64,000 bases of DNA from Escherichia coli. GTDB lineage: Bacteria; Pseudomonadota; Gammaproteobacteria; Enterobacterales; Enterobacteriaceae. Positions 36,887 through 55,751 of the stretch are shown piece by piece (the stretch's first letter is position 1; each line of letters starts with the position of its first letter). The notes under the pieces are model-generated. The model was not told where the DNA came from, did not search any database, and worked only from the letters and a program-made list of their open reading frames with translations. The stretch lies in the NCBI RefSeq assembly GCF_003334305.1, contig NZ_QOWS01000010.1; one strand, 5' to 3'. Position numbers and translations under genes: made by a program.

Positions 36887-38083
36887 ATGAAAACCTGGAT
36901 ATTTATCTGTATGTCCATAGCAATGTTGCTATGGTTTTTAAGTACGCTAAGACGTAAACCCAGTCAAAAGAAAGGCTGTATTGACGCCATTATACCTGCG
37001 TATAACGAAGGCCCGTGTCTGGCGCAGTCACTGGATAATCTACTGCGTAACCCTTATTTTTGCCGGGTAATTTGCGTTAACGACGGCTCCACGGACAATA
37101 CCGAAGCGGTCATGGCGGAAGTCAAACGCAAATGGGGCGACCGCTTTGTTGCCGTCACGCAAAAAAATACCGGTAAAGGTGGTGCGCTGATGAATGGCCT
37201 CAATTATGCCACCTGCGACCAGGTTTTTTTAAGTGATGCCGACACCTATGTTCCGCCCGATCAAGACGGAATGGGCTATATGCTGGCAGAAATTGAGCGC
37301 GGTGCTGATGCCGTAGGCGGCATTCCCTCTACTGCGTTGAAAGGCGCGGGGCTGTTACCGCACATCCGCGCGACCGTAAAGTTGCCGATGATTGTTATGA
37401 AGCGCACGCTACAGCAGCTCCTGGGCGGCGCACCGTTTATTATCAGCGGTGCCTGCGGAATGTTCCGCACTGATGTATTGCGTAAGTTCGGTTTCTCAGA
37501 TCGTACTAAAGTCGAAGACCTTGATCTCACCTGGACATTAGTGGCAAACGGCTACCGTATTCGGCAGGCGAATCGCTGCATCGTATACCCACAGGAATGC
37601 AACAGCCCGCGTGAGGAGTGGCGTCGCTGGCGGCGTTGGATTGTGGGATACGCGGTCTGTATGCGCCTGCATAAAAGACTTTTATTTAGCCGCTTCGGTA
37701 TCTTCAGTATATTTCCTATGCTGTTGGTTGTGATTTATGGCGTTGGGATTTATCTCACTACCTGGTTTAATGAATTCATCACCACCGGGCCGCATGGTGT
37801 GGTGTTGGCAATGTTTCCGCTTATCTGGATCGGCGTAGTTTGTGTTATTGGTGCTTTTAGCGCCTGGTTTCATCGTTGCTGGTTGTTGGTGCCTTTAGCG
37901 CCGCTTTCCGTTGTGTATGTATTATTAGCTTATGCCATCTGGATTATTTATGGACTTATTGCCTTTTTTACTGGACGCGAACCTCAGCGCGACAAACCCA
38001 CCCGCTATTCCGCACTGGTGGAAGCGTCAACCGCTTATTCCCAACCTTCTGTCACAGGAACTGAAAAACTATCTGAAGCTTAA
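36887..38083 (+). CDS. yaiP: Membrane-anchored family 2 glycosyltransferase YaiP
   Basis: 398-aa ORF; N-terminal TM helix, GT2 core (IIPAYNEG, DAD), RRWRRW motif, several C-terminal hydrophobic helices. Confidence 0.85.
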   Translation: MKTWIFICMSIAMLLWFLSTLRRKPSQKKGCIDAIIPAYNEGPCLAQSLDNLLRNPYFCRVICVNDGSTDNTEAVMAEVKRKWGDRFVAVTQKNTGKGGALMNGLNYATCDQVFLSDADTYVPPDQDGMGYMLAEIERGADAVGGIPSTALKGAGLLPHIRATVKLPMIVMKRTLQQLLGGAPFIISGACGMFRTDVLRKFGFSDRTKVEDLDLTWTLVANGYRIRQANRCIVYPQECNSPREEWRRWRRWIVGYAVCMRLHKRLLFSRFGIFSIFPMLLVVIYGVGIYLTTWFNEFITTGPHGVVLAMFPLIWIGVVCVIGAFSAWFHRCWLLVPLAPLSVVYVLLAYAIWIIYGLIAFFTGREPQRDKPTRYSALVEASTAYSQPSVTGTEKLSEA

Positions 38084-38642
38084 TGTTAAAGAGAAAAATA
38101 TTCAGATTGCAGACCAGGTAATTATTGATGAAACTGCAGGTGAAGTTGTTATCGGCGCGAATACCCGTATTTGTCATGGTGCCGTTATTCAGGGTCCGGT
38201 AGTAATTGGCGCAAACTGCCTGATAGGTAATTATGCGTTTATTCGTCCTGGCACAATAATCAGCAATGGTGTAAAAATTGGTTTTGCCACCGAAATTAAA
38301 AATGCGGTTATTGAAGCGGAAGCAACGATTGGTCCGCAATGTTTTATTGCCGACTCGGTAGTTGCAAACCAGGCATATTTGGGCGCACAAGTACGTACCA
38401 GTAATCATCGTCTGGATGAACAGCCTGTGTCTGTTCGAACTCCAGAGGGAATTATCGCTACCGGATGCGATAAATTAGGTTGTTATATCGGGCAGCGTTC
38501 ACGCCTTGGCGTACAAGTTATAATTTTGCCTGGGCGAATTATTTCCCCGAACACGCAACTTGGCCCGCGCGTGATTGTAGAACGTAATTTACCTGCCGGA
38601 ACTTATTCACTCCGACAAGAACTTATCCGTACAGGAGATTAA
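37932..38642 (+). CDS. yaiX: Hexapeptide-repeat (left-handed beta-helix) acyl/acetyltransferase YaiX; start uncertain
   Basis: Repeated [LIV]GxxxxI hexapeptides (IGANTRICHGAVIQGPVVIGANCLIGNYAFIRPG...); frame overlaps yaiP 3' end by 152 nt and no ATG/GTG/TTG lies in frame downstream of the yaiP stop. Confidence 0.65.
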   Translation: MPSGLFMDLLPFLLDANLSATNPPAIPHWWKRQPLIPNLLSQELKNYLKLNVKEKNIQIADQVIIDETAGEVVIGANTRICHGAVIQGPVVIGANCLIGNYAFIRPGTIISNGVKIGFATEIKNAVIEAEATIGPQCFIADSVVANQAYLGAQVRTSNHRLDEQPVSVRTPEGIIATGCDKLGCYIGQRSRLGVQVIILPGRIISPNTQLGPRVIVERNLPAGTYSLRQELIRTGD

Positions 38643-38643
38643 A

Positions 38644-39417
38644 ATGATAAAACGGACGTTATTAGCGGCGGCCATTTTTAGCGCATTGCCCGCTTATGCC
38701 GGGTTAACTTCCATTACCGCGGGCTACGATTTTACCGATTATTCTGGCGATCATGGCAACCGTAATTTAGCGTATGCTGAACTGGTGGCGAAAGTTGAAA
38801 ACGCAACGCTGCTTTTTAATCTTTCCCAGGGGCGTCGTGATTATGAAACTGAACATTTCAATGCCACTCGCGGTCAGGGTGCGGTCTGGTATAAATGGAA
38901 TAACTGGCTGACAACCCGAACGGGTATTGCCTTTGCGGATAATACGCCGGTCTTTGCCCGCCAGGATTTTCGTCAGGATATTAACCTGGCCCTGTTGCCA
39001 AAAACGCTTTTCACGACCGGTTATCGCTACACTAAATATTACGATGATGTCGAAGTCGATGCCTGGCAAGGCGGCGTATCACTCTATACTGGCCCGGTGA
39101 TCACCAGCTACCGCTATACCCATTATGACTCCAGCGATGCAGGTGGTAGTTATAGCAATATGATTTCCGTGCGTCTGAATGACCCGCGCGGCACTGGTTA
39201 TACGCAACTATGGCTAAGCCGCGGAACAGGCGCTTACACCTATGACTGGACGCCAGAAACACGCTACGGCAGCATGAAGAGCGTCAGTCTGCAACGTATT
39301 CAACCGCTGACTGAGCAACTTAATCTCGGGCTGACGGCAGGTAAAGTGTGGTACGACACCCCAACCGATGATTATAACGGTCTGCAACTTGCAGCCCATC
39401 TGACCTGGAAATTCTGA
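38644..39417 (+). CDS. yaiO: Outer-membrane beta-barrel protein YaiO
   Basis: 257-aa ORF, signal peptide (…ALPAYA|G), alternating amphipathic strands, C-terminal …LTWKF; AGGAG SD; ATG one nt after yaiX stop. Confidence 0.88.
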   Translation: MIKRTLLAAAIFSALPAYAGLTSITAGYDFTDYSGDHGNRNLAYAELVAKVENATLLFNLSQGRRDYETEHFNATRGQGAVWYKWNNWLTTRTGIAFADNTPVFARQDFRQDINLALLPKTLFTTGYRYTKYYDDVEVDAWQGGVSLYTGPVITSYRYTHYDSSDAGGSYSNMISVRLNDPRGTGYTQLWLSRGTGAYTYDWTPETRYGSMKSVSLQRIQPLTEQLNLGLTAGKVWYDTPTDDYNGLQLAAHLTWKF

Positions 39418-39526
39418 TTCCTTCTGCCGCCCGCTATCCGGGGCGGCCTTCCCTGCCGATTAGCCCCCCCCTTTCCTCTTTGTTTTCCGACCACATTCAC
39501 CGGATAAATTTTATTCTCCAGTGTTA

Positions 39527-39577
39527 TATACTATAGGGGGGTATGCATTGACATATAGCATACCCCCCTATAGTATA
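39527..39577 (+). promoter_or_regulatory. frmRAB promoter embedded in FrmR operator palindrome
   Basis: Perfect 20-bp inverted repeat TATACTATAGGGGGGTATGC / GCATACCCCCCTATAGTATA around an 11-bp spacer containing TTGACA (39548-39553); TAGTAT -10 candidate 17 bp downstream. Confidence 0.7.
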
Positions 39578-39602
39578 TTGTGTGCAGATAATGAGGTGCG
39601 AA

Positions 39603-39878
39603 ATGCCCAGTACTCCGGAAGAGAAGAAAAAGGTCCTTACTCGAGTTCGTCGTATTCGAGGGCAGATTGATGCTCTGGAACGGTCGCTGGAGGGTGATGC
39701 CGAATGCCGTGCCATACTCCAACAGATCGCTGCCGTTCGGGGCGCGGCTAATGGGCTGATGGCAGAAGTGCTTGAAAGCCATATCCGGGAAACGTTTGAC
39801 CGAAATGACTGCTACAGCCGCGAAGTCAGCCAATCCGTTGACGACACTATTGAACTGGTTCGAGCCTATCTTAAATAG
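39603..39878 (+). CDS. frmR: Formaldehyde-responsive repressor FrmR (RcnR/CsoR family)
   Basis: 91 codons from ATG 39603 ([30 protein letters not shown]...). Confidence 0.9.
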
Positions 39879-39882
39879 CTGA

Positions 39883-41022
<1,140 letters not shown>

Positions 41023-41114: not shown

Positions 41115-41948
41115 ATGGAACTCATTGAAAAACATGCCAGCTTTGGCGGCTGGCAAAATGTGTATCGGCATTATTCCCAATCACTGAAATGTGAAATGAA
41201 TGTCGGCGTCTATCTCCCACCAAAAGCCGCGAATGAAAAATTGCCGGTGCTGTACTGGCTTTCGGGCCTGACCTGCAACGAGCAGAATTTCATTACTAAA
41301 TCGGGGATGCAGCGTTACGCGGCTGAACACAACATTATTGTTGTTGCGCCGGACACCAGTCCGCGAGGCAGTCATGTCGCAGATGCCGACCGTTACGATC
41401 TCGGGCAAGGTGCCGGGTTTTACCTGAACGCAACGCAAGCGCCGTGGAATGAACATTACAAAATGTATGACTATATCCGCAACGAGCTGCCGGATTTAGT
41501 GATGCAACATTTTCCGGCAACGACCAGAAAGTCTATCTCTGGTCATTCTATGGGCGGGCTGGGCGCGCTGGTGCTGGCGTTACGTAACCCAGATGAATAT
41601 GTCAGCGTCTCGGCGTTTTCGCCCATTGTCTCCCCATCGCAAGTACCGTGGGGACAGCAAGCCTTTGCCGCATATCTTGGTGAAAATAAAGATGCCTGGT
41701 TGAATTACGATCCGGTGAGTCTTATTTCACAAGGTCAACGCGTTGCGGAAATCATGGTTGATCAGGGGTTGAGTGATGATTTTTACGCGGAACAGCTGCG
41801 GACTCCAAATCTTGAAAAGATCTGCCAGGAGATGAATATCAAGACGTTAATCCGTTATCACGAGGGTTACGACCACAGCTATTATTTTGTCTCCAGTTTT
41901 ATTGGCGAGCATATTGCCTACCACGCCAATAAACTGAATATGCGTTGA
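41115..41948 (+). CDS. frmB: S-formylglutathione hydrolase
   Basis: 277-aa ORF, esterase D fold with GHSMGG nucleophile elbow. Confidence 0.93.
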   Translation: MELIEKHASFGGWQNVYRHYSQSLKCEMNVGVYLPPKAANEKLPVLYWLSGLTCNEQNFITKSGMQRYAAEHNIIVVAPDTSPRGSHVADADRYDLGQGAGFYLNATQAPWNEHYKMYDYIRNELPDLVMQHFPATTRKSISGHSMGGLGALVLALRNPDEYVSVSAFSPIVSPSQVPWGQQAFAAYLGENKDAWLNYDPVSLISQGQRVAEIMVDQGLSDDFYAEQLRTPNLEKICQEMNIKTLIRYHEGYDHSYYFVSSFIGEHIAYHANKLNMR

Positions 41949-52602: not shown

Positions 52603-52632
52603 TTTACACTTTATGCTTCCGGCTCGTATGTT
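52603..52632 (+). promoter_or_regulatory. lac promoter (-35 TTTACA, -10 TATGTT, 18-bp spacer)
   Basis: TTTACA at 52603-52608 and TATGTT at 52627-52632; wild-type, not lacUV5. Confidence 0.9.
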
Positions 52633-52638
52633 GTGTGA

Positions 52639-55751
<3,113 letters not shown>

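Follow-up and report, generated by a model that had tools for sequence, protein, structure and literature searches.

A perfect inverted repeat upstream of frmR in Escherichia coli is very probably the known two-site FrmR operator of the frmRAB promoter

Introduction

Directly upstream of frmR, in the 64-kb stretch of Escherichia coli DNA analysed here (referred to throughout as the window), lies a long perfect palindrome that is very probably the frmRAB operon's operator-promoter (Pfrm), with two inverted type I sites for the repressor FrmR arranged around the -35 hexamer. The element is already known, having been described since 2016 as a FrmR double binding site over the frmRAB promoter. A first-pass annotation of this DNA had read the repeat in the same way, and we find that reading supported as correct, yet it is established knowledge. 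What we can add to the published work is modest: an apparently ancestral promoter-proximal site, an upstream site that looks lineage-specific, the seeming dispensability of the G6/C6 tracts and of the symmetry, and an ambiguous -10 register in Escherichia. The geometry of operator and promoter is of practical value because Pfrm together with FrmR is the standard formaldehyde biosensor and a dynamic-control part in synthetic methylotrophy. The perfect palindrome is the majority allele of E. coli, and K-12, the source of most constructs, carries an imperfect one.

The published picture is that FrmR binds a Pfrm fragment, that formaldehyde frees the DNA and that FrmR represses in vivo. In E. coli, a large inverted repeat in Pfrm, centred at -29, was interpreted as two tandem type I sites of the CsoR/RcnR family (Denby et al., 2016, Sci Rep 6:38879, Fig. 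6a, PMC5146963). In the same work EcFrmR bound a PCR fragment of Pfrm with a Kd of about 220 nM and left the control promoter PydhY unbound, and formaldehyde dissociated the EcFrmR-Pfrm complex via Pro2-Cys35 methylene bridges (PMC5146963). FrmR autoregulation, which the first-pass annotation had called established knowledge, agrees with this published work. Repression by FrmR and de-repression by formaldehyde have likewise been described in Salmonella (Osman et al., 2015, 2016; PMC4528141, PMC5016687), where two tetramers bind a 33-bp probe and mutation of one AT-rich flank abolishes binding (PMC5016687). Finally, a constitutive promoter became FrmR-repressible when ATAC-N9-GTAT sites were inserted upstream of its -35 and in its spacer (2024 biosensor paper, PMC11127321).

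Results

The features of the locus, with window coordinates, strand and the source of each assignment, are as follows.

39501-39525, plus strand: conserved upstream block CCGGATAAATTTTATTCTCCAGTGTT (alignments of E. coli strains)
39526-39546, no strand: left 21-nt arm of the perfect inverted repeat, ATATACTATAGGGGGGTATGC (sequence, repeat scan)
39528-39544, no strand: predicted FrmR site 1 (distal), ATAC-TATAGGGGG-GTAT (pattern search; motif from PMC5146963 and PMC11127321)
39547-39557, plus strand: 11-nt spacer ATTGACATATA (repeat scan, promoter scan)
39548-39553, plus strand: -35 hexamer TTGACA, the consensus (consensus promoter scan; a TTGA-type hexamer is conserved between the sites in relatives)
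39558-39578, no strand: right 21-nt arm of the perfect inverted repeat, GCATACCCCCCTATAGTATAT (sequence, repeat scan)
39560-39576, no strand: predicted FrmR site 2 (promoter-proximal), ATAC-CCCCCTATA-GTAT (pattern search; conserved in relatives)
39569-39574, plus strand: alternative, overlapping -10 candidate TATAGT at 15-bp spacing (list in PMC3946193)
39571-39576, plus strand: -10 candidate TAGTAT at 17-bp spacing (promoter scan, locus comparison)
39593-39596, plus strand: Shine-Dalgarno sequence GAGG of frmR (sequence)
39603-39878, plus strand: frmR, repressor of the DUF156/CsoR-RcnR family, 91 aa (ORF list, RefSeq annotation, NCBIfam)
39913-41022, plus strand: frmA, S-(hydroxymethyl)glutathione dehydrogenase, 369 aa (ORF list, NCBIfam equivalog)
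41115-41948, plus strand: frmB, S-formylglutathione hydrolase, 277 aa (ORF list, NCBIfam equivalog)

Both a repeat finder and an exhaustive scan return the inverted repeat as perfect over 21 + 21 nt (100% complementary) around the 11-nt spacer. No other perfect inverted repeat in the 64-kb window with a spacer of at most 30 nt has arms as long, the runners-up having 13 nt, and in 20 dinucleotide-preserving shuffles of the window the longest arms ranged from 9 to 13 nt. The palindrome is real and far beyond chance. The sequence quoted in the first-pass annotation is present exactly at 39527-39577, and the 11-bp spacer with its consensus TTGACA is as described there; of the 20-bp arms claimed, the perfect repetition stands and the length does not, since the arms measure 21 nt and the quoted stretch is a subset of the repeat. 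The left arm carries a G6 run (39536-39541) and the right arm the corresponding C6 run (39563-39568). Asymmetry in the 53-nt element is confined to the spacer, whose orientation determines the promoter's direction.

Elsewhere in the window, at 52632-52666, we note an inverted repeat with 13-nt arms (TGTGTGAAATTGT-gagcggata-ACAATTTCACACA), which we take to be the lac O1 operator region; the lac operon would therefore lie within the window.

The gene that follows the palindrome is frmR by its product, which matches the NCBIfam equivalog NF008464 with 189 bits against a cut-off of 133 and RcnR more weakly. With frmA and frmB next in line, the earlier assignment of the element to the frmR promoter holds. 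The ORF on the upstream side encodes YaiO, and the yaiO stop codon lies about 110 nt before the element. This region is matched in 5,416 of 5,426 complete E. coli genomes, where it is annotated as yaiO, frmR and frmA. Two observations concern the DNA further upstream. Between a glycosyltransferase-like ORF (36887-38083) and yaiO, an apparently intact ORF of 236 aa (37932-38642) occupies the position of yaiX, presumably an IS-interrupted pseudogene in K-12; and the variable part of the yaiO-frmR intergenic region contains a C8 homopolymer (39464-39471), which we considered as an FrmR-type site and rejected, as it has no ATAC/GTAT flanks.

A consensus scan of 39350-39950 finds a single promoter-like site, TTGACA-17-TAGTAT (39548-39576), with 10/12 matches. 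Its spacing (within the 16-18 bp range) and position are those of a sigma-70 promoter, the -10 ending 26 nt before the frmR ATG. The TAGTAT that had been put forward as a -10 candidate within the right arm is found there, 17 bp from TTGACA; that it is the -10 in use is plausible but unproven. The frmR promoter has been listed as TTGACA-15-TATAGT, and in genomic SELEX the RpoD holoenzyme binds the yaiO-frmR spacer (PMC3946193). The transcription start site of E. coli Pfrm is explicitly a prediction in Denby et al., 2016 (PMC5146963), and our literature search for an experimentally mapped frmR start site found none that was usable.

Within the arms, the available evidence supports two 17-bp cores of the form ATAC-N9-GTAT as the functional units. 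The 64 kb contain just two matches to this pattern, both of them in the palindrome, so that the pattern search gives no further FrmR sites elsewhere in the window, although two matches anywhere in the window are not significant alone (at least two occur in 10 of 100 shuffles). The cores are 15 nt apart, and the distance from centre to centre is 32 bp, or about three helical turns. Site 1 lies directly upstream of the -35 and site 2 spans the promoter spacer and the -10, and the -35 hexamer occupies the gap between them, separated by 3 bp from site 1 and by 6 bp from site 2. The first-pass annotation had placed the -35 at the centre of the inverted repeat, and this can be refined, the hexamer being outside both cores. 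Its further claim, that a bound repressor would occlude both promoter elements, fares better for the -10, which site 2 would cover directly, than for the -35, which would be occluded only if the footprint extends beyond the 17-bp core.

By the definition quoted in PMC5146963, a type I site has short AT-rich inverted repeats on either side of a G/C tract 3-8 bp long. Each of the two sites has a 6-bp run of G or C with AT-rich flanks, and both lie in the control region of an operon for a DUF156-family repressor, frmR beginning 25 nt downstream of the repeat. The half-sites of the E. coli frm sites are spaced exactly as in the RcnR-like pattern TACT-N7-AGTA; E. coli site 1 reads TACT-ATAGGGG-GGTA, with one deviation, in the half-site beside the G-tract, as compared with TACT-ATAGTGG-AGTA in the Edwardsiella type. 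The statement that G6/C6 tracts are the hallmark of RcnR/FrmR-family operators (TACT-G6-N-AGTA type) agrees with the comparison with RcnR made in PMC5146963; it is to be refined in that the uninterrupted G6/C6 runs are specific to Escherichia.

How much does the element vary within E. coli? The exact 53-nt perfect form is present in 3,555 of the 5,136 matching complete E. coli records, and a further 1,578 differ from it at one or two positions. K-12 MG1655 has A for C at 39559, which makes its palindrome imperfect and leaves perfect arms of 19 nt. In an alignment of nine sequences (eight from E. coli, the window included, and one from E. albertii), variation falls mainly on the two innermost positions of the arms, just outside the 17-bp cores. 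Changes inside the tracts also occur: strain 06-00048 has CA in place of GG in the left tract, and strains G5 and ETEC1716 have C7 in place of C6 in the right arm (equivalent to 39563-39568). If true, the C7 allele would convert the FrmR site to ATAC-N10-GTAT, with a -35/-10 spacing 1 bp longer; a sequencing error in the homopolymer may account for it. Downstream of the repeat, the window has T at 39581 where nearly all genomes have C.

On the upstream side, conservation ends near 39500. Depending on the strain, the upstream neighbour is yaiO, tauA or fbpC, with a synteny breakpoint at ~39480-39505, about 25 bp from the palindrome, and the genes on the yaiO side behave like an insertion/deletion island whose end lies just short of the promoter block. 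We considered whether the palindrome is itself a mobile-element or island-border repeat and rejected the idea, because the break lies ~25 bp upstream of it and the palindrome is always found with frmR. The block at 39501-39525 is retained in strains that have unrelated DNA further upstream. Removal of the sequence upstream of the sites led to loss of repression in a biosensor promoter (PMC11127321), and the block may perhaps act as flanking DNA needed for full repression or in contacts with RNA polymerase.

For a wider view we compared 80 loci with an frmR homologue (one genome per species, 160 nt upstream of each), counting as a site any ATAC-N9-GTAT that deviated at no more than one of its eight fixed positions. 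Such a site is found upstream of frmR in 75 of the 80 loci, usually 40-50 nt before the ATG, so that the type I sites are conserved upstream of orthologous repressor genes across Gamma-, Beta- and Alphaproteobacteria. The promoter-proximal site usually has one orientation, with ATACT and a C-tract towards the -35 followed by (T)ATAGTAT, in which TATAGTAT is the putative -10. In Brucella, Ochrobactrum and other Alphaproteobacteria there is a single site, directly adjoined by TTGAC (TTGAC-ATACTCCCCCATAGTAT), and we therefore take the ancestral unit to be one site between -35 and -10. Judged from these alignments, the promoter-proximal site, in which TATAGTAT would serve both as half-site and as -10, appears to be this ancestral and near-universal unit, and the upstream second site appears to be a lineage-specific addition. 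The latter, 32-35 bp upstream of the first, is found in Escherichia, Edwardsiella, Enterobacter, Morganella, Providencia, Serratia, Pantoea, Erwinia, Aeromonas and Deefgea; among the 80 loci it is confined to Enterobacterales, Aeromonas and Deefgea. In all 17 two-site loci with a scored -35/-10 pair a TTGA-type -35 lies between the sites, Deefgea being the one genus without a scored pair.

The same comparison bears on the -10 register, which in Escherichia is ambiguous between TAGTAT at 17 bp and TATAGT at 15 bp, because the spacer between the sites is 2 bp shorter than in most two-site relatives. In most of these relatives the tracts are interrupted (GTGGAG/CTCCAC) and the cores are separated by 17 nt, a distance at which TATAGT falls 17 bp from the -35. 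In Escherichia, with cores 15 nt apart, TATAGT is at 15 bp and the TAGTAT that overlaps it at 17 bp. This spacing explains why our promoter scan reports TAGTAT at 17 bp while the published lists give TATAGT at 15 bp.

Symmetry is less constant than layout. Erwinia endophytica has its two sites, ATACTGGGATATAGTAT and ATACTGGTGTATAGTAT, as direct repeats on either side of a TTGACC (2 differences when compared directly, 7 when compared inverted), and in other genera the arms have 1-4 mismatches within the cores. The direct repeats and the arm mismatches together indicate that the two-site layout is conserved and that neither palindromic symmetry nor uninterrupted G6/C6 is required; by this comparison, G6/C6 runs and perfect symmetry are features of Escherichia that are dispensable in its relatives. 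The loci of Edwardsiella, Enterobacter and Morganella have perfect arms with a different tract (GTGGAG/CTCCAC) and almost identical flanks. They are probably one mobile copy, and we count them as one observation. Concerted evolution of the arms was considered and set aside for insufficient evidence, given that the three perfect-arm loci amount to one observation, that other genera have 1-4 mismatches and that the Erwinia sites are direct. Near-identical frmR upstream regions in fact occur in two sets of loci across unrelated genera, one comprising a Citrobacter MAG, Klebsiella grimontii and Maribrevibacterium, and the other an Edwardsiella plasmid, Enterobacter and Morganella, with one copy plasmid-borne. 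The pattern suggests that frmR operons may move horizontally along with their operator.

Discussion

We propose that Pfrm is controlled through two inverted copies of a 17-bp site, each combining an AT-rich half (TATAG) with a G/C tract, with 32 bp between their centres. In the absence of formaldehyde, disc-shaped FrmR tetramers would be bound, most likely one to each site, and since 32 bp make up about three helical turns, they would lie close to one face of the DNA. With the spacer and the -10 covered at site 2 and the stretch directly upstream of the -35 covered at site 1, sigma-70 RNA polymerase would be excluded. Formaldehyde cross-links Pro2 of one FrmR subunit to Cys35 of another, altering the shape of the DNA-binding face and releasing the protein, and this release de-represses frmR, frmA and frmB. 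As the operon opens with frmR, the circuit is one of negative autoregulation. The perfect symmetry over 53 bp would then be a by-product of placing two copies of an internally asymmetric site in inverted orientation, rather than a requirement for a hairpin. We infer the exact bases contacted in E. coli, the stoichiometry of one tetramer per site, the occlusion of the -35 and the register of the -10 and the start site; a search of the literature for a base-resolution footprint or per-site mutagenesis of the E. coli frm promoter found none. Two observations sit less comfortably with the simplest version of this scheme. The distance between the sites ranges from 32 to 35 bp among relatives, so that strict same-face cooperativity is not conserved, and a single-site probe from Salmonella takes two tetramers (PMC5016687), an ill fit to one tetramer per site.

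The rival that keeps FrmR as the ligand has one tetramer holding both sites by its opposite faces, bending or looping the 15 bp that contain the -35. Denby et al. raised it, with sites about 31 bp apart as against 19 bp for RcnR (PMC5146963), and the recurrence of two sites with a -35 between them in the 17 loci with a scored -35/-10 pair agrees with it. We nevertheless consider it unlikely: 32 bp from centre to centre would demand a very sharp bend, the Salmonella promoter binds two tetramers even on a 33-bp probe with a single site, and both the 32-35 bp range of spacings and the direct orientation in Erwinia argue against one rigid sandwich geometry. A different kind of explanation dispenses with the protein and lets the DNA itself act as the switch, a cruciform being extruded under negative supercoiling with the -35 in its loop. 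The perfect 21-nt arms invite this thought, as do the strong hairpin predicted when the element is folded as single-stranded DNA (-21.5 kcal/mol, z = -7.0) and the status of the perfect form as the majority allele. Yet the inner stem is imperfect in K-12 and in about 30% of genomes, relatives have 1-4 arm mismatches in the cores, Erwinia keeps the promoter layout with direct repeats, and binding of FrmR explains why the cores are conserved while inner stem positions vary. An 11-nt spacer, moreover, disfavours cruciform extrusion. We give this explanation hardly any weight. It is just as hard to credit that the element works as an RNA hairpin, whether as a terminator, an insulator, a processing site for read-through from yaiO or a known structured RNA. 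In favour of such a role, the hairpin would be very stable, and some 110 nt separate it from the yaiO stop codon upstream; but the element stays with frmR when the upstream gene is tauA or fbpC, and the frmR mRNA cannot hold both arms, its predicted start falling at the 3' edge of the element or 3' of it. An intrinsic terminator was rejected, as neither strand has a T-run after the stem and the scan returned no terminator-like site, and so was a known structured RNA: the Rfam matches are all to generic miRNA-precursor hairpins and, with 19-27 bits, fall far short of the gathering scores (73-139), the best of them at 26.8 bits against 90.

One genome raises the question of whether the central segment can turn around. 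In E. coli FJ_Ec_21 (NZ_CP143627.1; ~335-349 of our extracted locus L005, equivalent to 39545-39559) the central 15 nt are the exact reverse complement of those of K-12, the asymmetric A/C position included. The 10/12 promoter match TTGACA-17-TAGTAT is consequently on the minus strand and points away from frmR, leaving only a 9/12 candidate towards it. The inverted form is found in this one genome of 5,426, the next best full-length match being 93% identical. Either one hairpin-loop inversion or an artefact of assembly may explain it. Small hairpin-loop inversions between short inverted repeats are well known in plastid genomes, and FJ_Ec_21 resembles them in the exact inversion of a loop between perfect inverted arms; it differs in that the loop carries the -35 hexamer, so that the promoter is reversed, and in having been seen once. 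If true, the inversion turns a strong promoter from frmRAB towards the upstream DNA. With identical arms on both sides, nothing but the 15 bp between the FrmR cores specifies which way the promoter points. It could be imagined that the arms mediate occasional inversion of these 15 bp and so make the promoter invertible, able to point away from frmRAB, with the exactly inverted segment of FJ_Ec_21 and the transfer of the strong match to the minus strand as its support. We judge this extremely improbable, since there is one such genome in 5,426, no recombinase is implicated, and the case could be a single template-switch event in replication or an artefact of assembly or polishing at a palindrome. 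Only marginally less far-fetched is the idea that rare arm-arm recombination or template switching inverts the 15 bp, and that formaldehyde detoxification would thereby be heritably switched off or rewired, with no need of a recombinase and with both FrmR sites retained.

Comparison with known systems

Reading the palindrome as a two-site FrmR operator places it next to three described control regions. The Pfrm of E. coli K-12 (PMC5146963) is the same locus and the same element as in the window. The differences are the base at 39559 (A in K-12, C in the window), which gives perfect arms of 19 and 21 nt respectively, two more substitutions downstream of the repeat, at 39581 and 39590, and the distance between the sites, for which we measure 32 bp from centre to centre in the window as against the 31 stated for K-12 (PMC5146963).

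The frmRA promoter of Salmonella Typhimurium is alike in its repressor family, in its de-repression by formaldehyde and in the sequence ACCCCCCTATAGTAT, which is identical in the mutated Salmonella probe frmRAPro* and in E. coli site 2; the Salmonella site requires its AT-rich flank. It has been described as a single C6 tract in an AT-rich inverted repeat, with two tetramers on the 33-bp probe, whereas the E. coli promoter has a second, inverted site upstream of the -35.

The rcnR-rcnA operator of E. coli (two TACT-G6-N-AGTA sites, cited in PMC5146963) shares with Pfrm the protein family, the type I logic, the half-site spacing TACT-N7-AGTA and the presence of two sites per control region. Its sites are 19 bp apart and its effector is Ni/Co, while those of Pfrm are 32 bp apart and respond to formaldehyde. 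Pfrm further differs from it in having GGTA rather than AGTA as the half-site on the side of the G-tract, and an additional TATA before the G-run.
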